From NCBI GenBank assembly GCA_963796285.1, contig CAWCKW010000013.1, positions 128,001-192,000 on the forward strand: a DNA stretch of 64,000 nucleotides, read 5' to 3'. Below the pieces are notes generated by a model, which did no database searches, was not told the origin of the DNA, and saw only the letters and a program-made list of their open reading frames with translations. This document shows positions 1 to 21,296 of the stretch, piece after piece. The DNA comes from Nitrospirota bacterium. Its GTDB lineage: Bacteria > Nitrospirota > UBA9217. Both the position numbers and the translations under genes were made by a program. Position 1 is the stretch's first letter, and each line of letters begins with the position of its first letter.

Positions 1-286
1 TGATCAGCAGGAGTTCGAGCACCATCCGCCGCGCCTCAATGAGCGCCGGGCTTGTCGTTCTGACGACCATATTATCAGTGGCCGGCGTGGTGCAGGACGG
101 CGTGAACTTGCGGGGGGTTCCCTCCACCTCAACCAGGCAGATCCTGCAGGCGCCGAAGGGATGCAATTTATTGTCCTGGCACAAGGTCGGCACCCGTGAT
201 CCCGCCGCGTTAGCAGCGTCAAGGATGGTGGACCCGTGGGGCACCTCGACCTTCTTTCCATCAACCGTAACCGTCATTTTCAACAT
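1..286 (-). CDS. NuoG/HydA/FdhA-like Fe-S subunit, N-terminal [2Fe-2S] domain (partial, runs off window)
   Basis: Not in the ORF track. Manual translation from ATG at 286: MLKMTVTVDGKKVEVPHGSTILDAANAAGSRVPTLCQDNKLHPFGACRICLVEVEGTPRKFTPSCTTPATDNMVVRT...ARRMVLELLLI. The PTLC / GACRxCLV / SC pattern is typical of this family, and it follows the NuoF-like gene. Confidence 0.85.
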   Translation of the reverse strand, partial: MLKMTVTVDGKKVEVPHGSTILDAANAAGSRVPTLCQDNKLHPFGACRICLVEVEGTPRKFTPSCTTPATDNMVVRTTSPALIEARRMVLELLLI

Positions 287-307
287 AGTTTTTACCTTAA
301 ACCTTTT

Positions 308-381
308 TACCACAGAGATCACAGAGATTTGAACCTGACGTGTCAAATCTTTCCTGTTTCTTCTCTGCGTCCTCTGTGGTG
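308..381. repeat. Palindromic element with 9-nt-unit arms
   Basis: Left arm accacagag-atcacagag; right arm ctctgcgtc-ctctgtggt. Fills the gap between the NuoF-like and NuoG-like genes. Confidence 0.7.
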
Positions 382-393
382 AAGATTTTATTC

Positions 394-2187
394 TTAATCG
401 ATCGACCAGAACCTGCATGCCTTGATGCAGGATTTGCACTTCGTGCACTTTTCCGGATCGATATAGGCTACCTGTCCCTTTTCCCAAATAAGCGCCCCGG
501 TCGGGCAGGCCTTAAAGCACTGACCGCATTTCTTACACTTGTCCTTGTCCACCACGAACTTGACGAGGGGAGTACAGACCCTGGCCGGACAGCGGTGCTC
601 CTTGATGTGCGCCTCGTATTCGTCGCGGAAATACTTTATCGTGGTGAGCACCGGGTTGGGCGACGTCTGGCCCAGGCCGCAGAGCGAGGTGTCTTTGATC
701 TGCTGCGAAAGCTCGAGCAGGAGCTCGATATCGCCCTCGCGGCCTTCGCCGTTCGTGATGCGCTGCAGAATGGTAAGAAGCGTTTTGTTGCCGATGCGGC
801 AGGGAACGCACTTGCCGCAGGACTCGTCTTCCGTGAACTCGAGAAAGAACTTTGCCATGGCCGGCATGCAGGTCGTTTCATCCATCACCACCATGCCGCC
901 GGAACCCATGATCGCGCCGGTTTTGTTGATATTCTCGAAGTCCACGGGCGTGTCGATCAGGGTATGAGGGATACAGCCGCCCGAAGGTCCTCCCATCTGC
1001 ACGGCCTTGAACTTTCGGTTGTTTTTGATTCCGCCGCCGATTTCAAAGATGATGGTCTTGAGCGGAGTGCCCATCGGCACCTCGACGAGGCCGATATTGT
1101 TAAGCGCGCCCGAGAGCGCGAACACCTTGGTCCCTTTGCTCTTTTCGGATCCGAGGCTCGAAAACCAGTCCGCGCCGTTCAGGATGATCGGCGGCACATT
1201 CGCAAAGGTCTCCACATTGTTCAGCACCGAGGGACGCATCCACAAGCCCTTGACCGCGGGAAACGGCGGTTTGGCCCGGGGCATGCCGCGCTTGCCCTCG
1301 ATGGACGCCATGAGGGCCGTCTCCTCGCCGCACACGAAAGCGCCCGCCCCCTGATAGATCTCGATATCGAGGTCGAACCCCGTGCCGAGGATATCGTTGC
1401 CCAGCAGCCCGTTCTCCTTGGCCTGATCAATGGCTATCTGGAGACGGTGCACGGCAAGCGGATACTCCGCGCGCACATAGATATAGCCATAGTGGGCGTT
1501 GATGCCTTTGGCCGCGATGATCATTCCCTCGAGCACCGAGTGGGGATCCGCCTCCATGACACTCCGGTCCATGAATGCGCCGGGGTCGCCCTCGTCGCCG
1601 TTGCACAGAATATACTTGATATCGCCCTGTACCCGGGCGCAAAGCTCCCACTTGAGGCCCGTGAGGAACCCGGCGCCGCCGCGTCCGCGCAGTCCCGAAC
1701 TCTTCACCGTGCTCACGATCTGCTCGGGCGTCATTTCGGTCAGCGCTTTGGCTGCGGCCATGTAGCCGTCGCGGGCAATATACTCCTCGATCTTCTCCGC
1801 ATCAATGAGACTCCGATTGCGAAGCGCCCGCAGCACCTGGTGCTTGAAGAACGGGATATCGTTCATCACGGGGATCGTGTTTTTCGCCGCTGGCGGCGTG
1901 TAGAGGAACTTCTCGACCGGCCTCCCCTTGATGAAGTGCTCCTCCACGAGGAACGACACATCCTCGGGCTTCACCAGCTGGTAGAAGATGTCCTCGGGGT
2001 ATACCACCATGACCGGGCCCTTGGCGCAGAATCCGTTGCACCCCGTCAGCACGATCTTGACCTCGTTCTGGAGGTTACGCTTGATGAGCTCGGTCTCGAG
2101 GGCGTCCTTGACCTTGAGCGATCCGTTCGCCACGCAACCCGTACCGGCGCAGATCATTATGTTAGAACGGTATGTCGTCGTTTCCAC
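394..2187 (-). CDS. nuoF: NADH-binding flavoprotein subunit, NuoF/HydB/HndC-type (extra N-terminal [2Fe-2S] and C-terminal 2x[4Fe-4S])
   Basis: SGLRGRGGAGF, NGDEGDPGAFMDR, GAGAFVCGEETAL, GGPSGG, ESCGKCVPCR, SLCGLG. N-terminal CAGTGC...GCNGFC; C-terminal CKKCGQC...CP and CTKCKSC...C. Confidence 0.95.
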   Translation of the reverse strand: METTTYRSNIMICAGTGCVANGSLKVKDALETELIKRNLQNEVKIVLTGCNGFCAKGPVMVVYPEDIFYQLVKPEDVSFLVEEHFIKGRPVEKFLYTPPAAKNTIPVMNDIPFFKHQVLRALRNRSLIDAEKIEEYIARDGYMAAAKALTEMTPEQIVSTVKSSGLRGRGGAGFLTGLKWELCARVQGDIKYILCNGDEGDPGAFMDRSVMEADPHSVLEGMIIAAKGINAHYGYIYVRAEYPLAVHRLQIAIDQAKENGLLGNDILGTGFDLDIEIYQGAGAFVCGEETALMASIEGKRGMPRAKPPFPAVKGLWMRPSVLNNVETFANVPPIILNGADWFSSLGSEKSKGTKVFALSGALNNIGLVEVPMGTPLKTIIFEIGGGIKNNRKFKAVQMGGPSGGCIPHTLIDTPVDFENINKTGAIMGSGGMVVMDETTCMPAMAKFFLEFTEDESCGKCVPCRIGNKTLLTILQRITNGEGREGDIELLLELSQQIKDTSLCGLGQTSPNPVLTTIKYFRDEYEAHIKEHRCPARVCTPLVKFVVDKDKCKKCGQCFKACPTGALIWEKGQVAYIDPEKCTKCKSCIKACRFWSID

Positions 2188-2208
2188 GGTTATTTACTCC
2201 GTAAATAT

Positions 2209-2302
2209 ATTGGAAATTGAAGATTGGAAATTTTAAATTTTAAAGAAGAACATACTGTTTTTTAATCTACAATATTCAATCTACAATTTCCAATTTTCAA
2301 TT
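2209..2302. repeat. Palindromic element with 7-nt-unit arms
   Basis: Left attggaa-attgaag-attggaa-attttaa-attttaa; right aatctac-aatattc-aatctac-aatttcc-aattttc. AT-rich, inside a GC-rich operon. Confidence 0.75.
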
Positions 2303-2306
2303 CTTC

Positions 2307-2684
2307 TTAATACGTCGTCTCATGCCCGACAACCAGCGCGTACTCCGGCACCGGCTTGCCCCCTGCGATGTGTTCGGCAAAGATTTTTCGCATTTTCTCG
2401 TCCGTCAGCGAAATGTATTTCACCGGCGGCTCACCCGTGGTCTCGATGGTGGCCATGGGCTCCTTGCTGCAAAGGCCCGCGCAGCCTGATGTGGTGATCG
2501 CGACGTCCTTCAGGTTCGATTTGGCAAGCTCTTCCATGATCGTGTTCATGATTCCCCTGGCGCCCGCGGCGATCCCGCAGGTCCCCATGTGCACCGTGAC
2601 CCTGACGCGGAACCCACCCTCGCGAAGTCCCTGGTGGTAATCTTCCTTGATCTTCTTTAAATCAGCGATCGTGAGTTTGGCCAT
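2307..2684 (-). CDS. Thioredoxin-like (2Fe-2S) ferredoxin, HndB/HydD-like subunit
   Basis: VHMGTCGIAAGA...SGCAGLCSKEP; lies between the NuoE-like and NuoF-like genes as hndB does. Confidence 0.9.
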   Translation of the reverse strand: MAKLTIADLKKIKEDYHQGLREGGFRVRVTVHMGTCGIAAGARGIMNTIMEELAKSNLKDVAITTSGCAGLCSKEPMATIETTGEPPVKYISLTDEKMRKIFAEHIAGGKPVPEYALVVGHETTY

Positions 2685-2769
2685 AGTTCATCACTCCGTG
2701 AATTGTAAGATACGACATGACACCGGCTGGTGCGTGTGTATTTTGCGCTTTGTAATTTGCGTTGTGGTC

Positions 2770-3279
2770 CTACTCATACTTCTTGACAATGTCCATCACC
2801 TTCGTGGCGGCAACATCTCCGTAGGTGTCCTGGCCGATAACGACGACCGGCGCGAGACCGCACGCGCCAAGGCACCTCACGGCCTCGAGGGAATACCTCT
2901 TGTCCCGCGTTACTTCGCCGACCTCCAGATCGAGTTCGTCCTTGATCTTATTGAGGATCTCCTCGCTCCGTTTCACATAGCAGGCCGTGCCGAGACAGAC
3001 CCGGATCACGTGCTTGCCGCGCGGCACGAGCGTGAAGAACGAGTAAAAGGTCGCGACGCCGTAGACCACGCTCGGCGACATATTGAGACCCCGGGCAACG
3101 TATCGCTGCACCGCAGGGGGGAGATAACCGCATACTTCCTGTGCCTGCTGGAGCACGGGGATGAGAGAACCGGGTTTGTCCTTATACTTAGCGACGATCG
3201 CGTCGATCCTCAGGAACATGGCCGGCGTTATGACCTCATTGTTTGTCGCAGTCTGCTGTGCAACCGCTTCGCTACTCAT
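2770..3279 (-). CDS. nuoE: NuoE/HydC/HndA [2Fe-2S] subunit
   Basis: LIPVLQQAQ...GYLP, GVATFYSFF, VCLGTACYV, RCLGACGLAP. Confidence 0.93.
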   Translation of the reverse strand: MSSEAVAQQTATNNEVITPAMFLRIDAIVAKYKDKPGSLIPVLQQAQEVCGYLPPAVQRYVARGLNMSPSVVYGVATFYSFFTLVPRGKHVIRVCLGTACYVKRSEEILNKIKDELDLEVGEVTRDKRYSLEAVRCLGACGLAPVVVIGQDTYGDVAATKVMDIVKKYE

Positions 3280-3305
3280 CGTTTACCTCTTGGCAATGTG
3301 AAATG

Positions 3306-3842
3306 TCACTCTTCAAACCGGGTCTGCTCCCTGAACATGCCCCTGATCGCATCAAGCACCGCCGGAGCATTGATCGGCACCTCTTCAAGGTCGTTTTTGA
3401 TCTCCCGTGTGTCGAGCCGGAAGACCCTGTCGCCCTCCCGTGCCTCATACACAACATCAAGATCGGGGTGTCCAGCGATCAGAGTGAGCACCGTATCTGC
3501 CATGCTGCCGATCGCCGGCCGGTCCACATGGCTCCATCGAAAAATTACTGCGACCTTTGTTCCCTTGCCCGGAGCGGAATCCACGGTTACCTTCCCGCCT
3601 GCCTGCTCCGCCGCCTGGGACAGGAGCGGTATCCCCAGTCCCGTCTTTTTGTGTTTGGTGGTGAAAAAAGGGTCCCGGACCTTTGCAAGCGTCTCGGCAT
3701 CCATCCCCCTGCCGTCGTCAATCACTTCAACGCGGATACGGTCGTGCTCCACGTCCCTTGTGATAATGATCGATATCGTCTTCGCATCAGCGCGGACCGC
3801 GTTCTCGGCTATATCAAGGATATGCAGCGAGATATCTTCCAC
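3306..3842 (-). CDS. Stand-alone histidine-kinase-like ATPase (HATPase_c)
   Basis: Likely GTG start (MEDISLHILDIAENAVRADA). Has N box, DDGRGM, DPFFTTK, GLGIP and GKGT motifs, with no sensor or obvious HisKA domain. Confidence 0.85.
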   Translation of the reverse strand: MEDISLHILDIAENAVRADAKTISIIITRDVEHDRIRVEVIDDGRGMDAETLAKVRDPFFTTKHKKTGLGIPLLSQAAEQAGGKVTVDSAPGKGTKVAVIFRWSHVDRPAIGSMADTVLTLIAGHPDLDVVYEAREGDRVFRLDTREIKNDLEEVPINAPAVLDAIRGMFREQTRFEE

Positions 3843-3846
3843 GGCC

Positions 3847-4593
3847 TCAGCAGACCGCCTTCCTGCCGTCTCTGCCTGCCAGCGCTTTTTTGATCTCCGC
3901 CACGTTCCCGTCTTCGATCGTAAAGCACATGGTCCGTTTTCCGATGTCGCCGAGACCGTGAGCATCGGAACTGGTGATGATCGGATACTTCCCGCAGTCA
4001 GGGAACCGGATTGCCGCCTCGACCGCGGTCATATGCGCTGAGACCTCAAGGGCATCAAGAGCAAGCTGAGGCGGGACAAAGCCAAGCTGTCCAATGATGC
4101 TGAACGACTCTCGGTCCACATGCGCCGCGATCACCAGGCTTGCACCTTGTGCCGCGCGCGCCGCTTCAACGATTGCCGCGGCCGGCAGCGAGGTTGCCCC
4201 GATCAATAGCCGGTCGCAGAATCCGGTCACCCCGTCTTCGTCATCAGCGATCACCTGCTGGCCGAAGGCATGCTCATCATTCGTGCCCTGCTGGTGGCGG
4301 TAAATAAACCCCTGGAATTTCAGGAGATCGTCATCGTCATCAAAGAACACCAGGATGTGCGCTTCCTCGGAAGAGGTGACTTCCATCCCGCCCAGCACCA
4401 TCAGCCCGTTCCGCAAGCCCGCCTTTTTCACCGCAAGGACGTTTTCCGCCGAGTTGTGGTCACAAATACCGATCAGATCAAGGCCCTTCCCGAGGGCCGC
4501 ACTCACAACTTCACGGGGCGACATGTCCAGACCGGAGCACGGAGACAGGCAGGTATGCACATGCAGATCCGCCTTAATCCGCCTCAGCGCCAT
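3847..4593 (-). CDS. PHP-family metal-dependent phosphoesterase
   Basis: DLHVHTCLSPC, ICDHNS, GMEV, AHVDR, SSDAH motifs. Confidence 0.9.
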   Translation of the reverse strand: MALRRIKADLHVHTCLSPCSGLDMSPREVVSAALGKGLDLIGICDHNSAENVLAVKKAGLRNGLMVLGGMEVTSSEEAHILVFFDDDDDLLKFQGFIYRHQQGTNDEHAFGQQVIADDEDGVTGFCDRLLIGATSLPAAAIVEAARAAQGASLVIAAHVDRESFSIIGQLGFVPPQLALDALEVSAHMTAVEAAIRFPDCGKYPIITSSDAHGLGDIGKRTMCFTIEDGNVAEIKKALAGRDGRKAVC

Positions 4594-4924
4594 GGATCCC
4601 TGCCTTGTATAATCTACCAACCAGCTCAAATGCCGACAGACTGCTCACCAGGACTGGGATGCCCTCTTCCTCAGCCTTGGCAATGGTGTCCTTTTCGGGC
4701 TGCCGTCCCTGGACCAGGATAATGCCCGCCAAGTCCTTGTGCGACGCCACTGCCACGATATTCTGATGAATGTGGAGCGTTACCCAGAGAGTCCCCTCGT
4801 CTGCATGGGCCAGGACATCCGACAGGAGGTCGCTCACGTAACCGCTGCTCACCTCACGGTCAAGGTTTTTGGCGCCGGTTTTTACTTCCAGATCGAATTC
4901 CTTTACAAGGTCACTCAAGGTCAT
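4574..4924 (-). CDS. DRTGG-domain protein (HPr kinase N-terminal-like)
   Basis: GYVSDLLSDVL...LWVT...NIVAVA...GIILVQGRQP...AEEEGIPVL. Confidence 0.85.
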   Translation of the reverse strand: MTLSDLVKEFDLEVKTGAKNLDREVSSGYVSDLLSDVLAHADEGTLWVTLHIHQNIVAVASHKDLAGIILVQGRQPEKDTIAKAEEEGIPVLVSSLSAFELVGRLYKAGIHGAEAD

Positions 4925-4937
4925 AATGGGTTCCCGA

Positions 4938-5891
4938 TCAGCTCGTATAATAGAACTGCATGGTCAGATGCGTTCCGTCGGGCACCGACGATCTCAGGTC
5001 CATCTCATCGGCGCATTTCTTTATGTTCACCAGCCCCATGCCTGCACCGAACCCCAGTTCCCGCACCCAGTCGGGGGCAGTGGAGTATCCCGGCTGCATG
5101 GCACGCTCGACGTCCGGGATTCCAGGACCATTGTCTGTCACTTCCACAATGATTCCCCACTTTTCCACCTGGGCCCGTATCACACCGCCCTTGGTGTACG
5201 AGGCAAGGTTGATCTCGGCCTCATAGGTGGCCACCCCGATTCGCCTGAGGAGCGGGGGACAGACACCCAGTTTTTTGAGTGCGTTCTTGAGCTCGCTCGC
5301 TGCCTTGCCTGCCTCCTTCAAAGTTTGGCCCGCAACGTTGAACTTGAAAATGAAGCTGACCTCGTCAGCGGTTACGTCCTCAAAGAACTTCCGCATCGTG
5401 GGCCGATGACGCGCCAAGGCAGCCTTCGACTCGGTCTGTTCGTATTCGATCTCAAGCTTCCTGAGCAGTCCTTCGACGATGCTCCCCTTTGTAATGATGC
5501 CGACCAGCTCTTCCTGACGATTCAATACGGGGTATCGCTTAAACCCGTATTTGGAAAACTTCGCGATACAGTGAACGAGCAGTTCGTCGGCGTACAGGCA
5601 CTCAACCTTCGTCTTCATCTTGTCCCGGATGAGGGCGTTGATGTCATTATTACTGAGGGCATTGATCAGGTCCGCTATGCTGACCATGCCAACAAGCTTC
5701 CCGTTCTCGACGACCGGCGTTCCGGAGATGCGGTTGGCCTTCAGGAGGATACTGAGCTCAGACATGGTCTGGTCCGGCCTTACGGTAACGACCGTGGCGG
5801 ACATGACCTCGCCGACCGTGATCTCATAGACCATCTCCTGGGTCTTGGTCACCCGGTCCGTCGCTGCCTGCTCTTTTTCTTGTTGTTCCAT
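4938..5891 (-). CDS. CBS-pair + RsbT/anti-sigma-type Ser/Thr kinase fusion
   Basis: N-terminal tandem CBS (ISGTPVV, KRYPVL...VGIITKG). C-terminal IGVATYEAEIN, DNGPGIPDVERAMQPGYST, GFGAGMGLVNIKKCAD. Confidence 0.9.
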   Translation of the reverse strand: MEQQEKEQAATDRVTKTQEMVYEITVGEVMSATVVTVRPDQTMSELSILLKANRISGTPVVENGKLVGMVSIADLINALSNNDINALIRDKMKTKVECLYADELLVHCIAKFSKYGFKRYPVLNRQEELVGIITKGSIVEGLLRKLEIEYEQTESKAALARHRPTMRKFFEDVTADEVSFIFKFNVAGQTLKEAGKAASELKNALKKLGVCPPLLRRIGVATYEAEINLASYTKGGVIRAQVEKWGIIVEVTDNGPGIPDVERAMQPGYSTAPDWVRELGFGAGMGLVNIKKCADEMDLRSSVPDGTHLTMQFYYTS

Positions 5892-5895
5892 CCGT

Positions 5896-6252
5896 CTAAT
5901 GCCGCTCGGCCACTCCTCTAAGTCCTTTCAAGTACAGTATGCCGCAGGCCTCGAACATCGTGAGCTTCGTCACGAACAGGGGGATGTCCTTCTGTTTTGC
6001 CAGCGCCACAGTGTCAGCATCCGGCTGCTTGCCGCGCACGACGCAGACCGCCTGGATATCAGCGATGTCGGCCGTCCGTACCGCCTGGGGGTTGGTGAGT
6101 CCCGTGATCAGAATGCCGTTTGCGTGAGTGCGGCCGAGCACGTCGCTCATGAGGTCGGCGCTGAAGCAGTGCTCCACCTCGATCTCATCGATAAGGCCGT
6201 TCCCGGCAAGGACCTGCGCGCCCAAGAGATTCACAATCTCTCTCAAATTCAT
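5896..6252 (-). CDS. DRTGG-domain protein
   Basis: MNLREIVNLL...FSADLMSDVL...LITGLTNPQAVRTADIAD...VRGKQP. Confidence 0.85.
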   Translation of the reverse strand: MNLREIVNLLGAQVLAGNGLIDEIEVEHCFSADLMSDVLGRTHANGILITGLTNPQAVRTADIADIQAVCVVRGKQPDADTVALAKQKDIPLFVTKLTMFEACGILYLKGLRGVAERH

Positions 6253-6268
6253 CCGGCAACCCTCTCCT

Positions 6269-7463
6269 CTATCGGTCACACTCGCCGAGCACGATATCGA
6301 TCGTGCCGATGCAGGCGATAACATCCGCCATCATATGTCCGGTCACCATCTTCGGAAGGGCGCTCACATGCACATACGATGGCGCGCGGATCTTGATGCG
6401 GTACGGCCTGCCGCTGCCGTCGCTCACGATATAAAACCCGAGCTCGCCCTTCGGCGCTTCGGTGGCCACGTAGACTTCGCCCTTGGGCATGGGGACCCAC
6501 TTGCTCATGTACACGAACTGGTGCGCAAGGGACTGCATGTTCTGCATAACCTGTCGTCTTCTCCGGCATGGCGTAGCGCGGGTCATCGGTCGTGATGGGC
6601 CCCGGCTGCATCATGTCCAGACATTGTTTGATGATACGGTTGCTTTGGCGCATCTCGTTGATGCGCACGATGTACCGGTCGTACACGTCCCCGTTCTTCC
6701 CGAGCGGGACATCGAACTCCACCTTGTCATACGCAGCATAGGGCTCTACCTTGCGCAGGTCGTAGTTCACTCCCGAGCCGCGGAGCGTGCCGCCGGTCAG
6801 ACCGTAGTTGACCGCGTCCTCGGCCGAGAACACGCCGATACCCACTGTCCGCTTGAGCCAGATCCGGTTCTCCCGGATAAGCGTATCGTAATCCTCGAGC
6901 CGCTTGGGGAACACTTCGGTGAACTCGCGGCACTTATCGATAAAATCGCGCGGCACGTCGTTCCGCAGACCGCCGATGCGGACATAACTTACGGTCTGTC
7001 GCGCTCCCGTCACCATCTCCGTCAGATCGAGGATGAGTTCCCGTTCCCGCAGCGTGTACATGCAGACCGTCATGGCGCCGATATCAAGGGCGTGGGTACC
7101 GAGCCACACTAGGTGCCCGGAAAGCCTCGTGAGCTCGGCCATCAGCGTCCTGATGAACTGCGCCCGCTCCGGCACGGTGATGCCGGCGAGCTTCTCCACG
7201 GCCACGACGTAGCCCAGGTTGTTGTTCATGCAGGTGATATATTCCAGCCGGTCCGTCATGGGGATGATCTGGTGGTAGGTGCGGCTCTCCATCCACTTTT
7301 CGATCCCGCGGTGAAGATACCCGGGACGCGGGTCACAGCCCACCACGGTCTCGCCCTGCAGATCGAGCACCAGGCGCAGCACGCCGTGGGTGGCCGGATG
7401 CTGGGGACCCATGTTGAGGGTAATTTCTTTTTGCACTATCTCTTTAGTCTCGGTAACGGACAT
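6269..7463 (-). CDS. nuoD: NADH-quinone oxidoreductase subunit D (one frameshift near 6558)
   Basis: [26 protein letters not shown]. The C-terminus in the second frame is EAPKGELG...[10 protein letters not shown]...DIVLGECDR. No Ni-binding CxxC motifs. Confidence 0.95.
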
Positions 7464-7476
7464 ATGTTCACCATGT

Positions 7477-7573
7477 AATGTCAAATGTCAAAACCCAAAG
7501 TTCAATTCAAACTTCAAACAGCAAGGCCACATGTTAAAATATTTTGACCTTTGAATTTTAAACTTTGAATTTT
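7477..7573. repeat. Palindromic element with 7-nt-unit arms
   Basis: Left aatgtca-aatgtca-aaaccca-aagttca; right ttttgac-ctttgaa-ttttaaa-ctttgaa. Between nuoC and nuoD. Confidence 0.7.
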
Positions 7574-7575
7574 CT

Positions 7576-8046
7576 TCAGTAGCCTTTCAGCGGATATTCC
7601 TTCCGGAGAGGATACCCTTCCCAGTCCTCGGGCAGGAGGATCCTGCGGAGGTCCGGATGACCGTCGAATTTTATTCCCATAAGGTCATAGGTCTCTCGCT
7701 CATGCCAGTTCGCTGTATGCCAGATCGCGGAGACCGTGTCTATTCGCGGGTCCTCTTCCGGTACTCTGACCTTCAAGCGAATACGATGGTGGAATGTGAT
7801 CGAGATCATATTGTACACGACCTCGAACCGCGGTCCGCTGTCGCCGGGGTAAGTTGAAAAATCGACTGCCGTAAGATCGGCCAGATGGTCCATCCTGACC
7901 AACGGTTCGTCGCGGAGGTAGAGGCAGATGTCCCGGATCATGTCCTTTTTGAGGGACACTCCCACCTGCCCCGCATGGGTCGTCGTGCCGAGTACCTGGC
8001 CGGGAAAGTTTTCTTCTATCATTTTGGCGATCTGCAAGGGGTCCAT
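7576..8046 (-). CDS. nuoC: NADH-quinone oxidoreductase subunit C
   Basis: RFEVVYN, ANWHERETYDLMGIKFDGHPDLRRILLPEDWEGYPLRKEYP. Confidence 0.95.
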   Translation of the reverse strand: MDPLQIAKMIEENFPGQVLGTTTHAGQVGVSLKKDMIRDICLYLRDEPLVRMDHLADLTAVDFSTYPGDSGPRFEVVYNMISITFHHRIRLKVRVPEEDPRIDTVSAIWHTANWHERETYDLMGIKFDGHPDLRRILLPEDWEGYPLRKEYPLKGY

Positions 8047-8167
8047 ACAACCTCGTATCGTACTGATCTCTACCCAAGGCTCCGGGGCAAAGCGGCCTGG
8101 TATTCGGAGTCTCTGTGGCCTGCTGCAGGAGATTGGGTATCGTCTGTGTTGATCTTGTGTGCAGGAT

Positions 8168-8647
8168 CTACTTCCGGATGTAATGCTCAGCTCTGATCTT
8201 TTCCTGAAGCTTCATGATGCCGAACATGAGGGCCTCCGGCCGCGGCGGACAGCCGGGGATATACACGTCTACCGGGACAATATTATCTACCCCCTGGACC
8301 ACGCTGTAGGTGTTGAAGATCCCGCCGGAACCGGCGCAACTGCCCATGGCAATGACATACCGCGGCTCTGGCATCTGGTCGTACACACGGCGCACGATCG
8401 GGGCCATCTTTTTAGTCAAGGTTCCGGCGACGAGCAGAAGGTCTGACTGCCTTGGTGACGGTCGAGGCACCGTGCCGAACCGGTCGAAATCATGCTGCGG
8501 AGCGGAGTAGTACTGGATCATCTCGATGGCGCAGCATGCGAGACCGAACGTCATGGGCCAGATGGAGTAGGAACGCGCAAGGTTTAAAAGCTCATCGAGC
8601 TTCGTGGTGATGTACCCCTCTTCGAAGGCGTTCTGGATTATTCCCAT
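8168..8647 (-). CDS. nuoB: NADH-quinone oxidoreductase subunit B
   Basis: [44 protein letters not shown]. Confidence 0.96.
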
Positions 8648-9012
8648 TCAAGGGCCCCCTTCTTCCACGCATAAAGATACCCAACGAGCAGGATGGCGAT
8701 GAAGACCACCATTTCCACGAAACCGTACAGGCCAATGTAGTCATAGGCTACGGCCCAGGGATAGAGAAACACGGATTCGATGTCGAATATGAGGAACAGC
8801 ATGGCGATGATGTAGTAACGGATAGAGAACTTCTGATGGGCGTCCATGAAGGGCGTGATGCCGGACTCGTAGGTCAGCAGCTTTTCGGGATAGGGGTTCC
8901 GCGGCCGGAGGACCCAGCTGAAGACAAGCATCCCGATGCCGACGGCGGAGCCGAGCAGCAAAAAAACGATCACGGGCAGAAAGTGGTCCGGAAGATAGGT
9001 ACTTGGTGTCAT
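8638..9012 (-). CDS. nuoA: NADH-quinone oxidoreductase subunit A
   Basis: [34 protein letters not shown]. Confidence 0.96.
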
Positions 9013-9067
9013 ACACTAAACTCCCTGCTATTAAATTTTGGATTAGCAGAACTTCTAAAACGGGCTC

Positions 9068-9096
9068 ATGATAAGCCATGCAAAAAAATTTGTCAA
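9068..9096 (-). promoter_or_regulatory. sigma70-type promoter of the nuo operon
   Basis: Minus strand reads TTGACA-17 nt-TATCAT, ~55 nt upstream of the nuoA start. Confidence 0.7.
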
Positions 9097-9303: not shown

Positions 9304-10702
9304 TCAAAGCTGTACAAAATAATTCGCCCATGCCCCGTCGATGACCTCTTTGGTCATTACCGGCGGGGTCTCACGGTATCTGGCTATATCGATGATCTGA
9401 TCTATGATGTCCCTCGGGTGGCAGGCATTCAGTTTGACACCTATTTTGTCATAGTGTTCCTTGAGCAGATAGTCAAGGACATCTTTTCTGAGTTCCAGCC
9501 CCTTCTGTTCAGCTACCCGATGGAATATCTGACAATATTCTTCCAAAGGAGGATGGTCTATCTTGATCTTGTACCTGATCCTCCTTAGAAAGGCCTCATC
9601 CACTAATTGCCTAGGCTCTATGTTGGTTGCAAATATAATGATCTCGTCAAATGGTACCTCAAACTTGTTTCCCGTATGAAGGGTGAGGAAATCCGTTCCT
9701 CTCTCTAGGGGCACGATCCAGCGGTTCAGGAGGTCTATGGGCTTCACCATCTGCCGCCCGAAGTCGTCAATGATAAAAATACCCCCATTTGCCTTCATCT
9801 GAAGTGGGGCCTCATAGTATTTGAACACCTCGTCGAAATCCAGGTCCAGGGTCTTTAACGTAAGTTCCCCTCCCACCATGATGATAGGTCGTTTGCACCG
9901 GACCCATCTGGCATCTCCATGGATTTCTTCCATGATAGGTTTGTGATTAACAGGATCAAAGACTTTTATCACCTGACGATCAACGATCACTGCATGGGGC
10001 ATGCAGACCTCGCCAGGTAAAAGGGAGCCAATGGCCTCTGCTATGGCGGTCTTTCCGTTTCCTGAAGGACCGTATAAAAAAATGGATTTGCCTGAGTTCA
10101 CCGCCGGGCCAAGCTGGTCAATGAGGGTCCCGCCGATGACGAGGTGGGAAAATGCCTTTTGTATGGCCCCTTCATTCACAAGTACGCTTTTTACAGACTG
10201 ATACTTCATCTGCTTGGAATAATCAGCAAGGGTGACAGGGGCTGCGCCAATATATTTACACATGTCAAGCGCCTCCTGTGCCCTTTTTCTTCCCAGCTCA
10301 GTTATGGAGAATTGATACGTAGTAGCTTCGTAACCGGTCCCTCCCTTTACTTCACACATCTTATTCTTTCTTAGGGACTGGACCGTCTGGTCCATAATGA
10401 GGATCGGGAGCTTGACCGCCTTGGCCAGGTCTTTCAGTGTAAAACTTCCCATGGAATAAATGTGCTTCAGGGTCAGATCGGATATGAATCCGGATCAAGG
10501 CCTGTTTCCTCCAGGGTTTTAGGTTCACGGGGGATATTTTTAAAAAAAGTAGTGAGCTTTTTCTCCTTTATCAAACCGAGGGCCACAAAGGTCTCACCGA
10601 GTCGTCATCTCCTTTACTTTTTTGCGTGTTCAGTGCCTTTTCAAGCTGCTCCGGAGTAACAAGCCCTTCATCGATCATCCTCTTACCAAGCACATATTCC
10701 AT
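9304..10702 (-). CDS. AAA+ ATPase with N-terminal MshEN-like domain (frameshifts in the 5' part)
   Basis: ORF 9304-10452 has GPSGNGKT and IIDDFGRQ. Upstream frames from ATG 10702 give MEYVLGKRMIDEGLVTPEQLEKALNTQ...RLGETFVALGLIKEKKL...PREPKTLEETGL. Confidence 0.8.
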
Positions 10703-11733: not shown

Positions 11734-13362
11734 TTAGTCCGGTTTCTCTTCATCGTTCGGCACCAGTTTAACATCCCTATACCTGTCTCTCAAACCGGCA
11801 TTCAATGGCCCTTTTCTCACAAAAACATTTGCCACCTTGTCCGCGTACACAAGGCTCCATTGATCAGTTTCCAGAAGGAGGACCGAAAGAGGTGAATTGG
11901 CGCTGATCAACATCCATTCGATATTGAAGCGTTCAAGGACCTCCTTCCATTCCGGCTTCAGGTCCACGACATCGAAATAATTTTTCAGGAATGAGTCATA
12001 CATGTCCGCCCGGCCATCAACAAATACGCCGTCCCTGGGGAAACCTTTGTAGATCAGATATCCTCCAAAGTGATAGGTATTAAACAGTCTCCCCTCTATC
12101 CTGTTTCTCTCGGCAAATTCCACCGCCTCTACAGGTAACTTTTTTTTGTCAAATTCATATTTCATGAAAGGCATGCCCAGGACTTTTCCTCCGGTCAGAG
12201 TAATCGCAGTTACGGAGAGGACAACGATGGTCTTCAGAACATGCCCTTTCAAGGAAGCACTGGTTTTTTGAATCCTGTCTGAAAAGGCGAAGACACTGGA
12301 TATCAACCGGTTGCCGCCCGCTCTCCCTTCTTTCATCAGCCCTTCCAGTCTTATCGCCATAATGGGAATGACAATGATGGCAAAGATCGGGCCATAACGC
12401 ACAGAATGGAGGGAAAGATGGGTCCAGAGGAGGACAAGACCGGCCTCTACAAAACCCGGCCTGAGCAGGGAAAAACTGAGCACAATGATCAGGAAGAGCA
12501 GCAGATATTCGTACGGGAGAAAATTATGAAAATTGGGAGAAAGCCACTCGTCTATCCTCCCTATGTTCAGCTCCTGCCCCATGATACGGAAGGGAAACAG
12601 GATGGCCTTATAGCCATGCGGGTTTACCAGTGCTGCGGCGGTGGCCAGCAATCCGACCTTGCCATAGGTGATGACATTTTTTTTCTGATCTGACCGGCCC
12701 TTTTCATCCTTTGGAAAAGAACTCTGCCAGGCTTCCCAGACAGTAGACCGCGATCAGGAGGAGCCCTGCCATAAAACCACCATGGAGATTGACCCAGAGG
12801 ATGGTCACGAACGGGAGCAGATAGAGATACCGCTTGGCTGTCAACCGGTACTCTTCCAACGCTATATACCAGAGAAGCAGAATGGGCATTGACAGGATAT
12901 GCGGCCTGGCAAGCCAGTGGACAGAGGTCGTAGCCATTGCCGCGATCGTAAGGATGAGCGCTAAGGCCGTATTGACCCCCCGGGAAAGGAGAAAACCGTA
13001 GAAGGTGGAGTGAGTATACGCAATGGCCAGGGCCGCAAGAAGAACGATGCCGTTTAACCCGGCGAACTTATGTATGACTGCGAATATCAGTTCGGTCAGC
13101 CATCCATGGGCCATCCAGGGCATGTTTGCTGCTGTGAATGAAAAGATCCCGGTATCGGGGACGGTACCGGTCTCAAGGATATATCTCCCTATCCCAATGT
13201 GCCAGGCCGTGTCCGCATCACCCAAAAGGTCTTTCCCACCAACAATAAGGAACAGGAACACGACGAGGAACAGTGTATCCTGCAAAGAAGGAAGAAGCCA
13301 ATTGCCCAGGAGGTTGTGTTCTCCGAGGGTATCTTGACGCCGCCTACTTCATTTCTTTCCAT
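11734..13362 (-). CDS. Multi-pass membrane GT-C-like glycosyltransferase (frameshifted)
   Basis: Joined ORFs 12704-13285 and 11734-12651: DADTAWH, WMAHGWL, ARPH, WVNLHGGF, NPHG, IDEW, YHFGGYLI, FVDGRADMY. Confidence 0.65.
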
Positions 13363-15866
13363 GTCATTCCTTCAGGAGATTTATATTTTGATATGCTGTC
13401 GCCGTTCTCGATCTTGCCCGTAAACCATTCGTCCTCATCCCAGTATATCCCCTCGGGCATGAGCAGGCGGCCGATGAACGTTCCTTCCTCACCGATCAGC
13501 ACCGGCCCGAACAGCCTTGTCTTTCGTTGTGAGGGAAGGGTAACCGAGAGAATGCACTTTGTCCTCTTCCCGCCGGTCACCGACAGTACGTACGCCCGGC
13601 CTTCGCTTCATAGATGGCAAATATTTTTTCCCGGTACCCTTCATGAGCGGACATCAATGCACTTACCTCTACTGCGGAAACTGCCCCCTGCTCATCATCG
13701 AGACTGTCCCTTGTTTTCCGCGCCACCTCCGCCCTCAGTTCACTGTCCCGATCCTCCCAATAGAGGTGCACCAGGATGTCAGGCGCTTTCTGGTTCGTTA
13801 CCATTACTTTCAGGACACTGCTCCTGGCAGATACTCCCTTCGAATTAACGGCCTCGGCCTGCAAGGAATTTTCCCTTCCTGAAATAAGACAGTCTTCTCA
13901 AAAGATCCATTCTCCACAGCGGCCTCGACAGATTCCCGTTGACGATCAGCCTCACCGTATCAACAGTACTGTCCCCGACCCTCCCCTTAACCGTTATGAC
14001 GGGGGATGCAACCTCTCCTGCTTCGGGCTCTTCCAGGGAAAGTGCAAAGCCGTTCCTGGCAGGCATTGCCTCTACGATGATCTGATCAGTAGCAGAATAC
14101 CGGTTCCTGTCCCAGGCAGTAGCCGAAATAGTATTTTTCCCGTCTATGAACGCGCTTTCCCATTGGAACTTATCATTCTCAACAGGGACAGTAACGGAAT
14201 CACCATTGATGGAGAGAATGACCCTGGTGATCCCATTTCCCTTTACCCGCCCGCCGATTTCCTGGACCTTGCTGCTGACCTTCTTCGTTGCAGGGGTTGT
14301 GATCTTTATCATCGGCCTGCTAACAGGGATGCTTATCCTGATGGGGTCTATGTCGGTCCCGAACCTCTTAAGAAGTGACAGGGAAATGGTCTTTTATTAA
14401 CGATTGCCGCGGCCTTCGTCTCAACAATTTTAGCGGGCGTCTCCGCTGCTTTCTCCCTTGCCCTGTCGGCGGTGATCAATGGCGCCACAGGGGTGATCTT
14501 TGCAGGGAGATCCCTTTCCTTCGCTTTATCGATCCCGTTCTTTTCCTTCTCCTCTTTTTTTAACATCATGCAGATCGGGAATCACCGGCACTGGTTTTGT
14601 GCTTTGCTTGAGTAATGACTGGTCAGATTTCATCTCGCCCGTCTTTACGGACGGAGGGATGTTTTGCGGCACCTCTTTGGGGGCGGGCGATACAACGGGC
14701 TGTTCAGCGGCCTTTGCAGGCGCCTCTTTGACAGGGGCCGCATGCCTTTCTTCAGGCTCACACCGTTTCTGCGGCCACAACCGGAGCGGGAGGCGGGGCC
14801 GCCGGCTTTATCGGTTCTTGAACTTTTTTAACAGGTGCTGCAACGGGCTGTTCAGAGGCCTTTACAGGCACCTCTTTGACAGGGGCTGCGTGACTTTCTT
14901 CAGGCTTAGCCGGCGCGGCCACAACCGGAGCGGGAGCAGGGCCGCCGGCTTAATTGGTTCTTGAACTTCTTGGAGAGCAGGATGGGGAATTTGCTCGGAT
15001 CTAGCTTCCCTTGCAGACTCTTCTTTCCGAAGGTCGCTTGAAGGCTGAACAAGCGGCTTTTCAACCGGCTTAGTAATCTCCGGTTTTGGCTTAAGGTTAT
15101 CCGTTATTGTGATGTCCTGTTTATCCGGTTCAATCACCGGCGGCTGGTAGGAATCAGCGAGTTTCTCCTCAGCAAATGAAGGAAGCACATCCTCGGCTTT
15201 TGGAGCGGCTTCTCTGGCAGTATGTGCACCAGAATGCAAAAAGGACGGGTGCAGGTCAGGACGGGTACAGACACAGGAACAGGTACAGGTACAGGTACAG
15301 GTACTGGTACAGGTACGGGTGCAGGTACGGGTACAGGTACCGGTGCAGGTACCGGTACAGGTACAGGTACAGGTGTAGGTACCGGTACAGGTACGGGTGC
15401 AGGTACCGGGAGGTGACAGGACGGTACAGGTACCGGTGCAGGTATGGGTAAGACTGGTGCGCTATCCACCTTAGGGGCCTTCGATACTTGAACAAGCTTA
15501 TGAACCGGGCTGATAGGTTTGACTATTGTACGGGGAACCTTGCTCTTTAACGATGGCAGGTTATTATTTCTTGCTCTTTCTTCTGCTTCTCTCGGCTTTT
15601 CCCTGCGACACCTTCTTAGCAGCTGCCGGCTGCGATGGCCCCATGTCTTTCCGTTGTCCTTCATCAACGCTATCCTTCAGATTTACCATGAGGATCGTGT
15701 TTTGCTGTTCTGTCAGTCGATCACTGACATTAAAGTGATAAGGGGTCAACAGCAAGAGAACAGCATGCAACACAATTGAGAGCCCGCAGGCAAACACCAG
15801 GTCAGCGGATGAGGTTCGTTTTGTTAATCTATTATTATAATCCGGCTGTAGTAGAACATCGATCAA
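13344..15866 (-). CDS. Large membrane-anchored Pro-rich protein with C-terminal Ig-like domains (TonB/TolA-like anchor; several frameshifts; start approximate)
   Basis: Consecutive fragments: [15 protein letters not shown]; (PV/PA)n tract; EKP/AP-rich linker; beta-rich Ig-like repeats ([19 protein letters not shown]). Confidence 0.6.
14721..14966. repeat. Imperfect ~100-bp direct repeat inside the Pro-rich gene
   Basis: cctctttgacagggg...cggccacaaccggagcggga...gggccgccggctt..ggttcttgaact occurs at ~14722-14824 and ~14870-14967. Confidence 0.8.
15262..15450. repeat. 6-bp tandem repeat (ACAGGT/ACGGGT/ACCGGT/GCAGGT) encoding Pro-Val/Pro-Ala dipeptides on the minus strand
   Basis: About 30 degenerate hexamer units are visible; the minus frame reads [19 protein letters not shown]... 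Confidence 0.95.
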
Positions 15867-15891
15867 AATGATAATGAAAATGATTTTAATA

Positions 15892-17751
15892 CTATTTGCC
15901 GATAAAAGAAAGCCAGAATTTTCGCATAGTAACAAATAAGGTCTTTTTAAACGCCTCAAGATGAATTTTATTTGTAGCTAACCATGTATCGTCCGGGACT
16001 TCGCCCGGAAGACATGGCCCCTTGGGGGCAGAAATACCAAGACAGTCAACAGCCTGCACCTTGTTTTCTTTTTTGCCTTTCCAAAACAGCCCCAGCATGG
16101 CGGCAAGGCAGGAAAGAATGGAAATCCATTTTGCGGCCTTTCTCAAGGGTGTATCTCTGAACTCAAGTAAAACGGTATTCTCTCCTGAAGGGAGATTGAG
16201 CAGCATTGCCCCGCTGCCTATTTCAATGTCAATGGGAATTTCCCTCCCGTTGGTGAGCGCAGTCCATCCCGGGTAGTAGAATGTTGATATTCTCAACGTT
16301 GACGCGGTCGGGGCGATCGCCTTGATCAATCTGGATTGGGACATCCAGTCTCACGATTTCAACTGGTTCCACGCCCTTCTCGTATATACAACAGGAGTCT
16401 TTCCCTTTTCTTCGGAGAAAGCTTCTTTTCTCATCAACAAGCCAGATCGGCCGATACTCGATCAAATCCTGCACCTTCACTGAATATCCGTTCCCGGTCG
16501 CTCTGTTGCATCGGCTCTTACTGCTGATAGATAAGCTTGATGAAAGGTAAATGATTGATAATTAATGATGGCATGGAATAGCGCCTGTAGAAACCCTGGT
16601 CGTCCGGTCCGTCTTTATATCGGCTAAAGAAAGACTTGTCAAACGAAATACCAACCAGGGCGGCGGTGGCAAGGGTGGCATATCATCAGCCACCTCCAAG
16701 GGAAGAGAGTGGTTGGCAGCCCTGGAATGTGCAACTCCCAGAGAGGCATGGACAGAGAAGTTGAGATGAAAAGAGAAAAAACAAAAACCGATCACAAAAA
16801 ACAAAAAAAGATATTCGATTCGGGAAATTCGCCAGATCGCTTCTTTTTTTGGAATAGATCAGCATCAGAAGAAAGAATTACTAAAAGGACATGCAGCATA
16901 ACGAGTTCGTTCCAACTGTATATAAAACGGATCTAGGCCGTTGTTCTTTCAAATGCAGAAAATTGCGGGTATATATCCCATGGCCCTTCTTTCAGCCATC
17001 CTATGTGCACGAATTTTCTTTCAAAGAACATCGGCAGGAAATATACGGCCGAGAGCGAAAGGCCGACGAGAGACGCCAGGACGGCTCCTGAGCAATATCC
17101 GGTAGATCTTTTTCATAGTATGGCGAGGAACAGGGCATACGCGGCGATGACAAATGAAAAGATGATAAGCGGAGGCAAGATGGGTGAGCACCAGACCCGC
17201 ATAAGAAAACGCCATGCCTACCCAGAGAGAGGTCCGGTTTTCTGTAGCGCCTTTATACGCAAAATGCAGGATCATGGGAAGCCAGAAGAAGGCAAAGGTC
17301 TCGACCAGCGACTCCCGCAGATATAGGTCAAAGAGATGATACGGTAGGAGCTGATAAGACAATGCCTCCCTACCAAGCTACCTAAACGACCGCAGAAATT
17401 TCGCAGGAGTACATACATACGATATCCCTGATAGAAGGAATCCCGATGAGTGTTACGATTTTCAATGAGATTATCAGAGAGGGAGTGATAAAGTTTACTG
17501 ACACCGGTAAGGATATAAAAAAGAGGTGAATAAAAGATGGTGACAGGACTTCCATATCCCCCGTTGGAAAGAGAAAGCCAGCGCGGATAAAACGCTCCAT
17601 CTTTGATGCCCTCGCTGACCTGGAAGGCATTGTACAGATGGATTGAGAGGTCCCAACTGCCGGTAAAAAATCCGGAATTTATCAGAAGCGGCGTTATTGC
17701 GTAAAGAGCGCAGAGTGCCAGTGAAATAAATCCGACCGCGGTTTTCATCAT
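15892..17751 (-). CDS. Membrane protein, '6-pyruvoyl-tetrahydropterin synthase-related' GT-C-like family (multiply frameshifted)
   Basis: DLSIH...FYPRWLSLSNGGYGSPVTIFYSPLFY, PYHLFDLYLR..E, LTHL. C-terminal YfhO-like FYYPGWTA..NG...LPSGENTVLLEFRDTPLR. Confidence 0.7.
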
Positions 17752-17887
17752 ATTAGCACCATCTTCAGGAGTATAAATCTGCTCAGCGAAATCATACTGC
17801 TCAGGAACTCGAGCATCTAACATACAAGCGTAGGGAGCGGCAAACTATCATATTCTTAGAACAGGACCATACGGAAATACAGCTATC

Positions 17888-19423: not shown

Positions 19424-19612
19424 TTTTTATCAGGCTGAAGCATGGTCATGTCGTATTTCTCCAGAACCAGAGCACACTGGACGGAATCCATATGAGACAG
19501 GAACCTGCACTAAAGGGAATTCTTGTAATGATGGTCAACAGAAAGAGCACCGAGGGGAAAAACGGGTCATCATCAGGCGCGGCCGTATATCGCATAGTCT
19601 TCACGCCGCATT

Positions 19613-19954
19613 TCAGACTATTGTCACCCTGTCTCCTATCTGGATCTGTGCCCTATCAATAGTCCCTTCGGGCAACTCAAGGACGCCCTGTGCATGCCGG
19701 CACGAGACCACAGGGCGGAAAGGGCGTAGACCCTTGACTGTTTTTTTAACGATAAAATCCCTGTCCAGAAAAACCACGTCGATGGGGAATCTCATAAAAA
19801 AAGTATGGATGGCCTTGCAGCGGGCCATCCACAGGCCTTCATTGTTCTCCAGGCGGCCCCTTCCCATAAGCCCAACAAGCCTCTGGAAAAACTCCGCCGC
19901 CTCTTTCAGGTCGGATACTATGACCGTTTTCTTTGAACCATTGAGCGCCTTCAC
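19613..19954 (-). CDS. DUF192 family protein
   Basis: FFQRLVGLMGR, IHTFFMRFPIDVVFLD, VLELPEG; a common Tad-locus neighbour. Confidence 0.9.
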   Translation of the reverse strand: MKALNGSKKTVIVSDLKEAAEFFQRLVGLMGRGRLENNEGLWMARCKAIHTFFMRFPIDVVFLDRDFIVKKTVKGLRPFRPVVSCRHAQGVLELPEGTIDRAQIQIGDRVTIV

Positions 19955-19957
19955 TAC

Positions 19958-20053: not shown

Positions 20054-20095
20054 ACCCTTCACCTCCTTCCGGTTATTAACAAATTGTCAAAACCC

Positions 20096-20276: not shown

Positions 20277-20339
20277 TTCATGCAGTGCCCATCTTTTTTT
20301 CATGAAACTTTTAACACTACCGTTGTTAATTCACCTGAG

Positions 20340-21266: not shown

Positions 21267-21296
21267 ACCCACCCGCCGGTGGATGGGAAGCACGGG

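Follow-up and report, generated by a model that had tools for sequence, protein, structure and literature searches.

The Bfu family, which includes the electron-bifurcating HydABC and NfnABC enzymes, has been defined by its BfuBC core (Schut et al. 2022, Front Microbiol, PMC9304861). The same report predicted a 14-subunit enzyme, named Nuo-Bfu from genomes and represented by 51 sequences, of which BfuB clade 38, from Deferribacteres and Proteobacteria, has 26 Nuo members and clade 39, from Planctomycetes and Nitrospirae, has 16. Nuo-Bfu was predicted to co-oxidize NADH and reduced ferredoxin, to reduce menaquinone and to pump protons, and its genes were reported to be co-expressed in Geobacter sulfurreducens (PMC9304861). 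In the literature that we searched, the term Nuo-Bfu occurs in that paper only. Here, we describe a 64,000-nucleotide stretch of DNA from a Nitrospirota bacterium (contig CAWCKW010000013.1, positions 128,001 to 192,000; the window). With moderate confidence for the two statements jointly, we regard the minus strand at 2-9096 as the promoter-proximal two-thirds of a Nuo-Bfu operon and its product as working by the mechanism proposed below. The nuoA-D genes of the window are ordinary complex I genes (membrane and quinone module), and homologues of BfuC, BfuB and BfuA, of the electron-bifurcating HydABC/NfnABC family, stand in for the NuoE-F-G input module. The arrangement is not new; it is a further member of a published, biochemically uncharacterized class. 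A preliminary description of this DNA had suggested that such an enzyme may pass electrons from NAD(P)H and ferredoxin to (mena)quinone with ion pumping, which equals the prediction of Schut et al. (PMC9304861).

In published Nuo-Bfu loci, BfuC-B-A lie in the middle of a nuoA-N cluster and replace NuoEFG; the upstream half of this layout is seen in the window and the downstream half in its relatives, and Nitrospirae are among the phyla listed for clade 39. The present locus differs in that its operon also contains, between nuoD and bfuC/bfuB, five regulator-like genes and an HndB-like gene, and in the G subunit (BfuA/NuoG-like) of its clade, which is short at the C-terminus (680-707 aa) and devoid of the Molydop_binding domain seen in Geobacterales and Syntrophales. 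Among solved structures, the electron-bifurcating [NiFe] hydrogenase NiFe-HydABCSL of Acetomicrobium mobile (7T2R/7T30) matches both F and E best, and there, too, a BfuABC head feeds a NuoB/NuoD-like pair, HydS and HydL being homologous to NuoB and NuoD. The A. mobile enzyme, however, is soluble and has a Ni-Fe site, whereas here the NuoD quinone site replaces the nickel ligands, membrane subunits are present, and position 478 of F is Thr instead of Cys. HndABCD of Desulfovibrio fructosovorans and the HydABC(D) [FeFe] hydrogenases share the order of an E-like, a small HndB/HydD-like, an F-like and an A subunit gene (hndA-B-C-D), as well as the N-terminal FeS domains of the A subunit, but the A subunit of the window's relatives has no Fe_hyd_lg_C domain. 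Compared with canonical complex I (E. coli NuoA-N, T. thermophilus Nqo1-15), nuoA-D here and nuoH-N in relatives are orthodox, whereas F is 597 aa instead of 445 aa long, with three extra cofactor-binding regions and other motifs, and E, F and G score at or below NCBIfam NuoE/F/G cut-offs.

The genes at positions 2-9012, together with the promoter-like site ahead of them, are as follows:
9068..9096, minus strand: sigma-70-like promoter match, TTGACA-17 nt-TATCAT, 56 bases ahead of nuoA
8638..9012, minus strand: nuoA (Oxidored_q4, Pfam E 7.2e-39)
8168..8647, minus strand: nuoB (Oxidored_q6, Pfam; NF005012, 247.6 vs 116 bits)
7576..8046, minus strand: nuoC (Complex1_30kDa, E 2.8e-47; TIGR01961, 147 vs 122.45 bits)
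6269..7484, minus strand: nuoD in two frames, 6276-7484 and 6269-6586 (Complex1_49kDa, Pfam)
5896..6324, minus strand: DRTGG-domain protein (DRTGG, Pfam E 2.2e-6)
4938..5891, minus strand: CBS pair with SpoIIAB-like GHKL ATPase/kinase domain (CBS, E 3e-24; HATPase_c_2, E 2.2e-9)
4574..4924, minus strand: second DRTGG-domain protein (DRTGG, Pfam E 2.3e-6)
3847..4629, minus strand: PHP-domain phosphoesterase-like protein (PHP, Pfam E 7.8e-8)
3306..3965, minus strand: GHKL (histidine-kinase-like) ATPase without HisKA domain (HATPase_c, E 4.5e-19)
2770..3279, minus strand: E subunit, bfuC/nuoE-like, 169 aa (2Fe-2S_thioredx, Pfam E 1.8e-51)
2307..2684, minus strand: small HndB/HydD-like protein with a thioredoxin-like ferredoxin fold, 125 aa (Pfam, 22.3 bits)
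394..2187, minus strand: F subunit, bfuB/nuoF-like, 597 aa (Pfam domains and 7t2r_B match)
2..286, minus strand: 5' end (95 codons) of the G subunit gene, bfuA/nuoG-like, which continues past the window start (Fer2_4, E 5.4e-24)

All the nuo-, hnd- and NuoE/F/G-like genes that the preliminary description had reported as co-oriented are present, on the minus strand; it had mentioned neither the five regulator-like genes nor the split of nuoD. Successive open reading frames (ORFs) of the operon overlap or are separated by at most 121 bases, and the terminator scan placed no terminator-like site between operon genes on the minus strand; such sites numbered 9 in total against a shuffle mean of 8.2, which is not an enrichment. 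The promoter-like site agrees at 11 of 12 positions and was the best of 8 sites scanned, as a consensus match only.

The best PDB match of the F subunit was 7t2r_B, the B subunit of the A. mobile enzyme, which scored 841.8 bits and aligned without gaps across residues 5-596. The top nine matches were all B subunits of HydABC/NfnABC (Bfu)-type complexes (841.8-676.9 bits), most of them solved as electron-bifurcating enzymes, and eight of these were near full length; 7q4w_B, a 470-residue chain, matched from residue 133 on. Respiratory NuoF, Nqo1 and NDUFV1 scored about 298-384 bits in the PDB chain search, over core residues ~130-534 only (NuoF about 384 bits over 133-530), and the F core was 44% identical to E. 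coli NuoF. Among NCBIfam models, F fell below the cut-offs of TIGR01959, the main NuoF equivalog (501.8 vs 558.65), and NF008436 (414.1 vs 749) and narrowly passed that of NF010120 (394.9 vs 389), whereas the E. coli NuoF control reached 678.4 with TIGR01959 and 1001.1 with NF008436. The motifs GDPGAFMDR, KGTKVF and GGPSG had been proposed as marks of the bifurcating type; they are indeed common to the window F, 7t2r_B and 7q4v_B, whereas the corresponding stretches of E. coli NuoF read EPGTYKDR, AGTKLM and GGAGTD.

The domains and cofactor ligands of F were in line with this assignment. Pfam identified an N-terminal 2Fe-2S_thioredx domain (residues 7-82), Complex1_51K, NADH_4Fe-4S and two C-terminal Fer4 domains, so that the extra N-terminal [2Fe-2S] and C-terminal 2x[4Fe-4S] regions noted earlier were found together with their cofactor cysteines; SLBB was not listed at E<=1e-3, but the region is nonetheless gapless against 7t2r_B. 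Ligands were present for the [4Fe-4S] cluster B1 (C457/460/463/503), the zinc/His site B2 (C440, T478, H527, C533 and C538), clusters B3/B4 (eight Cys in two CxxCxxCxxxC motifs at 551-561 and 581-591) and site B5 (C13, C18, C50 and C54). The B2 residues align with C438, C476, H525, C531 and C536 of the A. mobile protein; E. coli NuoF, which has no terminal domains, carries N, E, G, S and I in these columns. Schut et al. (2022, PMC9304861) reported the Thr variant of B2 for about two-thirds of BfuB. The B2-B5 ligands were kept strictly in 74 of 74 aligned Bfu-type proteins, all Nuo-linked ones included, with the reservation that many non-Nitrospirota rows have Gly in the B5 columns 13/18, which may reflect an offset in the alignment. 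Sites B2, B3, B4 and B5 were reported to be missing from non-bifurcating homologues, among them respiratory complex I, and deletion of B3/B4 abolished bifurcation by T. kivui HydABC (Li et al. 2025, PMC11829005).

Relatives were collected by a genome-contig scan with the F protein, which gave 80 loci (numbered L001 onward). For a quick maximum-likelihood tree we used 74 Bfu-type F proteins and E. coli NuoF and left out five incomplete loci; because the tree came from a short search with a single, very long outgroup branch, only its gross separation is trustworthy. F was found among the Bfu-type proteins, and E. coli NuoF is separated from it by a branch of 8.75 changes per column; the grouping with respiratory NuoF that had been named beforehand as evidence against a bifurcating-type head was not obtained. 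The window F belongs to a five-row Nitrospirota clade (Shimodaira-Hasegawa-like approximate likelihood ratio test, SH-aLRT, 100), whose sister is a nine-row, Nitrospirota-dominated clade (98) that includes one Deferribacterota and one unclassified metagenome-assembled genome (MAG). Two Syntrophales Nuo rows branch next (99), and outermost is a 13-row Geobacterales clade (93) of 12 Nuo-linked loci and L033, a short contig with F and G only. The whole 29-row group (SH-aLRT 93) thus holds, besides the window, all 18 Nuo-linked loci, L033 and the nine-row sister clade. On the bit scores, tree, motifs, NCBIfam cut-offs and cofactor sites, F as a respiratory NuoF was rejected.

The E subunit has the four ligands of the [2Fe-2S] cluster C1 (C95, C100, C136 and C140). 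Its best PDB matches were Bfu C subunits, with 154.3 bits to 7t2r_C vs 55-108 for NuoE/NDUFV2 of complex I, and it scored below the cut-offs of all 9 NuoE models listed in NCBIfam. The small protein between E and F had been described as an HndB-like ferredoxin. The gene is present and its PDB matches are BfuB N-terminal domains and the free thioredoxin-like [2Fe-2S] ferredoxins 5abr_A and 1f37_A; its Pfam score, however, is under the 24.8-bit cut-off, and it keeps only three of the usual four cluster cysteines. Cys36/68/72 were kept in 24 of 24 aligned sequences (the window and 23 homologues), and in all 24 Gly replaces the second Cys of the usual CxxxxC pair.

The quinone module was of the complex I type. 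NuoB, 54% identical to its E. coli counterpart, has the CC...C...C pattern of cluster N2 ligands (C38, C39, C104 and C133). NuoD contains the strings GPQHPATHG and DRLEY, as does its homologue in the related locus L003, ends in GECDR and has no nickel-binding CxxC motif, in agreement with the earlier statement that it is not a hydrogenase subunit. In the window the Complex1_49kDa match is split, with profile positions 1-180 and 174-271 in separate ORFs, and DNA alignment located one extra base near 6551-6556 relative to three of three aligned relatives (L001, L003 and L006); this base reflects an assembly indel or else a mutation that recently inactivated the gene. The intact L003 NuoD passed NuoD equivalogs (565 vs 360 bits, NCBIfam), is 41% identical to E. 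coli NuoCD, and keeps the residues aligned with H224 and Y273 of that protein, which we take to be the quinone-site His and Tyr. Equivalog cut-offs of NCBIfam were likewise passed by NuoB, NuoC, NuoH and NuoI. At 53740-55376 on the plus strand, a PNP_UDP_1 phosphorylase-family gene adjoins a VitK2_biosynth (MqnA/MqnD-type) gene, and this pair suggests menaquinone synthesis by the futalosine route, which would fit menaquinone as the acceptor of the complex.

The continuation of the operon was read from relatives, with 20 L003 proteins searched by tblastn against the 80 loci and the window. The closest relatives of F are from Nitrospirota MAGs (L001 and L006, 94%; L002, 93%; L003, 91% identical). 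L003, which has no frame breaks, carries nuoA-B-C-D, the same five regulator-like genes, E, HndB, F, a 707-aa G (12201-14324) and nuoH-I-J-K-L-M-N, all co-oriented, and its nuoH starts 9 bases past the G stop codon. L001 has the same gene order with several frame breaks. In that long-read MAG, on a 2.35-Mb contig, nuoH, nuoL and nuoM are each split into two ORFs (14422-20103), suggesting frequent indel errors in the assembly. Among the 80 loci, 14 had co-oriented nuoA-D (at least three of four), bfuCBA and nuoH-N (at least six of seven): two Nitrospirota, two Syntrophales-like and ten Geobacterales/Desulfuromonadales. Cultivable carriers of this architecture include Geobacter or Geomonas species (L019 and L041). 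Four further Nuo-linked loci (L002, L006, L025 and L034) are cut by contig ends. Since nuoH-N follow in the closest relatives, the product is expected to be a membrane-bound, ion-pumping enzyme of the 14-subunit type.

The preliminary description had left open whether the gene at the window start encodes NuoG, a molybdopterin FdhA or an H-cluster HydA. The window fragment, with four Cys at 36, 47, 50 and 65, is 91-92% identical to the start of the L003 G. The G proteins of relatives contain Fer2_4, NADH-G_4Fe-4S_3, Fer4_Nqo3, Molybdop_Fe4S4 and Molybdopterin domains. The H-cluster domain Fe_hyd_lg_C was not found by Pfam in G of L001, L002, L003 and L006, whereas 7 other loci were positive, in a scan that covered 51 of 69 proteins downstream of F (the other 18 are marked as unscanned in the tree). 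In alignment with R. capsulatus FdsA, the L003 G shows Lys in place of His387 and a gap where the Mo-ligand Cys386 stands, and G of L001, L002 and L006 shows the same loss; these positions, counted from the alignment, are presumably the catalytic pair. The Molydop_binding domain, present in 816-882 aa G of Geobacterales, Syntrophales and sister Nitrospirota loci, is absent from G in three of three complete or near-complete proteins of the window's clade (L001, L002 and L003; L006 is cut at a contig end). The NCBIfam NuoG score of the L003 G (462.4) is just below the 470.05 cut-off. Both an H-cluster hydrogenase downstream of F and an active formate dehydrogenase were rejected, the former from the domains of the relatives' G and the latter from the missing active-site Cys-His and molybdopterin guanine dinucleotide (MGD)-binding domain. 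Because neither an H-cluster nor a formate dehydrogenase active site is present, the relatives' G is, as judged from its sequence, a NuoG-like electron conduit. NuoG followed by nuoH-N was seen in relatives, L001 and L003 being the nearest; an H-cluster gene without nuoH-N, which had been named beforehand as a refutation, follows F in neither of these two. Modeling of the interface, also proposed earlier, was carried out with L003 G and NuoI. The pair co-folded with a score of 0.57, against 0.00 for the best of 3 controls, partner predicted local distance difference test (pLDDT) values of at least 80 and agreement between runs in at least 96% of contacts. Of 157 solved complexes 116 reach the mark used, as do 2 of 215 mismatches; only 18 of the 157, however, pass at scores of 0.60 or below. 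The result weakly supports contact, and it may reflect memorization by the predictor, NuoG-NuoI complexes having been solved.

From sequence we infer ferredoxin coupling, the direction of operation and roles for the cassette and the HndB-like protein. In the proposed mechanism, the flavin mononucleotide (FMN) of BfuB would oxidize NADH, while reduced ferredoxin would dock at the C-terminal 2x[4Fe-4S] domain of BfuB, which holds clusters B3/B4. The two electron streams would merge at the B1-FMN-C1 site and pass through the iron-sulfur (Fe-S) chain of the catalytically dead, NuoG-like BfuA to NuoI, then to cluster N2 of NuoB and finally to menaquinone, for which the conserved His/Tyr of NuoD would form the binding site. 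This electron flow would drive proton pumping via NuoH and NuoL-N.

Several points weigh against this reading of the locus. The nuoH-N genes and most of G are known from relatives only, the window nuoD is frameshifted, and the tree supports no more than the gross separation described above. The HndB-like protein, besides having three Cys only, has a counterpart, the A. mobile hydD product, that is placed outside the holoenzyme in a figure legend of Schut et al. (2022, PMC9304861). In the sister Nitrospirota loci L005, L007 and L008, nuoABCD is divergent and nuoH-N is not found within 10 kb, so nuo-bfu adjacency is not always one operon. According to Table 1 of the same paper (PMC9304861), electron transfer to menaquinone is exergonic from NADH and from ferredoxin alike, so that coupling is not thermodynamically required, and in proven Bfu enzymes the potential of the third substrate falls between those of NADH and ferredoxin. 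An experimental Nuo-Bfu study (purification or assay) was not found in a literature search that lay mostly outside subscription journals and judged abstracts from 2021 on among the matches listed. The exergonic step from NADH also favors an ordinary NADH:menaquinone complex I, in which NADH alone suffices, the Bfu-type head is an evolutionary leftover or an alternative N-module lineage, and B2-B5 lie off-pathway like N1a/N7. The identity of the F core to E. coli NuoF, the NF010120 pass and the lack of biochemical evidence of ferredoxin use in the literature searched fit such an enzyme; strict conservation of the ligands of four extra sites, however, would be unexpected if these were vestigial, and for both F and E the scores with proven bifurcating enzymes are roughly double those with respiratory enzymes. 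We consider an ordinary complex I unlikely, though it deserves appreciable weight. The same head, with its complete ferredoxin-side pathway, might instead run mainly in reverse, as complex I can: proton-motive force would push menaquinol electrons uphill, and the Bfu head would split them onto NAD+ and ferredoxin, providing low-potential reductant for CO2 fixation in an anaerobic Nitrospirota lithotroph. Bfu enzymes are described as reversible in section 6 of Schut et al. (PMC9304861); however, the window is silent on direction, no carbon-fixation genes were found among the 57 other window ORFs scanned, and both half-reactions would be endergonic, unlike the bifurcation logic of known members, and predominantly reverse running appears improbable.

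Two explanations concern the integrity of the operon. The nuo and bfu genes may belong to two enzymes, a soluble BfuABC-type oxidoreductase with its own regulators having come by chance to lie in or beside an 11-subunit, ferredoxin-type nuo operon. It is true that the cassette and bfuC-hndB-bfuB move as a block, which is also found with FeFe hydrogenase genes and a GltD-fusion gene, and that nuoABCD faces away from the bfu genes in L005, L007 and L008. The A subunit of the window's clade, however, has no H-cluster, formate dehydrogenase Cys-His or MGD-binding domain, and without a catalytic site a soluble BfuABC would have no third substrate. In addition, the bfu genes have nuoD on one side and nuoH on the other, with the 9-base gap to nuoH in L003; this arrangement is kept in three distant lineages (14 loci), and Geobacter co-expresses the genes (Schut et al. 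2022, PMC9304861). Chance neighborhood of two enzymes is accordingly given very little credence. Alternatively, the nuoD frameshift may be real and inactivating, the operon being lost in this genome, since the extra base relative to all three relatives splits NuoD after ~313 residues. However, nuoD is the sole broken gene of 13 in 9 kb, the other tblastn matches being full length, and the breaks in nuoH, nuoL and nuoM of the related L001 suggest that assembly indels are common in such data; loss of the operon seems rather unlikely. A single Nuo-Bfu enzyme that would merge NADH and ferredoxin electrons onto menaquinone is the reading that we prefer.

The loci in which the nuo and bfu genes part company showed further variation. 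In L005, L007 and L008, nuoABCD is transcribed away from bfuC-hndB-bfuB-G (e.g., L008 3363-6068 and 9361-17196) and the cassette follows G; their G, 819-821 aa long, keeps Molydop_binding and has also lost the formate dehydrogenase Cys-His. In L004 (1644-6411 and 9391-14422), from a MAG of Candidatus Sulfobium, the genes upstream of bfuC-hndB-bfuB weakly resemble NuoB/C/D/L/M/N (26-38% identity) and may represent a membrane module of the Mbh/Mrp type connected with a Bfu head. In this locus the F match ends at residue 430 and the next ORF opens with Fer4 motifs, indicating a possible frame break or fusion.

The five co-oriented cassette genes, which are embedded with the small HndB-like gene ahead of and within the BfuC-B-A module, encode in order a DRTGG protein, a CBS-GHKL ATPase, a second DRTGG protein, a PHP protein and a GHKL ATPase, and occupy the space between nuoD and the NuoE-like gene. 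The CBS-GHKL protein scored 48.8 bits with the NCBIfam model spIIAB, below its cut-off, and the true start of the GHKL ATPase at 3306-3965 is likely near 3842, the L003 homologue beginning at the VEDISL position. A cassette of at least three of the five genes at 35% identity or more was found at 16 loci besides the window, none of them Geobacterales. Among these loci, together with bfuC-hndB-bfuB, it stands beside FeFe hydrogenase genes at six (L042, L043, L050, L058, L065 and L073) and beside a GltD-fusion gene at L038. The A. mobile cluster includes genes marked hisK and hydD in the Figure 1 legend of Schut et al. (2022, PMC9304861), and the words DRTGG, PHP, histidine kinase and HndB are absent from the main text of that paper. 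A literature search for a link between a DRTGG/PHP/GHKL cassette and hydrogenases gave nothing relevant by title or abstract. The cassette, with its nucleotide-sensing CBS pair, probably adjusts expression or activity according to the redox or energy state. There is also a slim chance that the cassette proteins and the three-Cys HndB-like protein are not transcription factors but a post-translational switch (kinase, phosphoesterase and nucleotide sensor) on the Bfu head, which would set an NADH-alone mode, an NADH-plus-ferredoxin mode or a reverse mode that makes reduced ferredoxin from menaquinol and proton-motive force. With such a switch, the quinone pool of an anaerobic Nitrospirota cell would be linked to both soluble redox pools in a regulated and reversible way.

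If Nuo-Bfu merges NADH and ferredoxin electrons onto menaquinone, this would explain full complex I pumping in strict anaerobes with a low-potential quinone, and the enzyme would be a living intermediate between ferredoxin-driven and NADH-driven complex I, as argued by Schut et al. (2022, PMC9304861). The window adds a Nitrospirota example whose head retains the cassette and the HndB-like gene that accompany soluble bifurcating hydrogenases, and its lineage adds a trimmed G subunit as well as sister genomes with the same head beside, not inside, the nuo genes. The cassette-bearing head, the trimmed G and the sister genomes make a usable series on how the head was recruited.

Other features of the window were also recorded. 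Just upstream of the nuo promoter-like site, a 382-aa ORF (9304-10452, minus strand) contains the P-loop string GPSGNGKT and matched no Pfam family at E<=1e-3, and an Rfam scan of the whole window gave 0 matches at gathering score. A Tad/Flp-type pilus cluster occupies 19613-29731 on the minus strand, with two T2SSF genes, a T2SSE ATPase, response-regulator/ParA-like, TadE/G-like, secretin and RcpC/CpaB genes and a prepilin peptidase; two of its ORFs, 25304-26443 and 26209-27705, overlap by 235 bases. The G+C content is 0.39-0.42 at 30001-32000 and 38001-42000, compared with 0.45-0.58 elsewhere in the window. Several ORFs at 30001-32000 are without a Pfam match, and 38001-42000 carries glycosyltransferase genes (PMT_2, GT2 and GT4).

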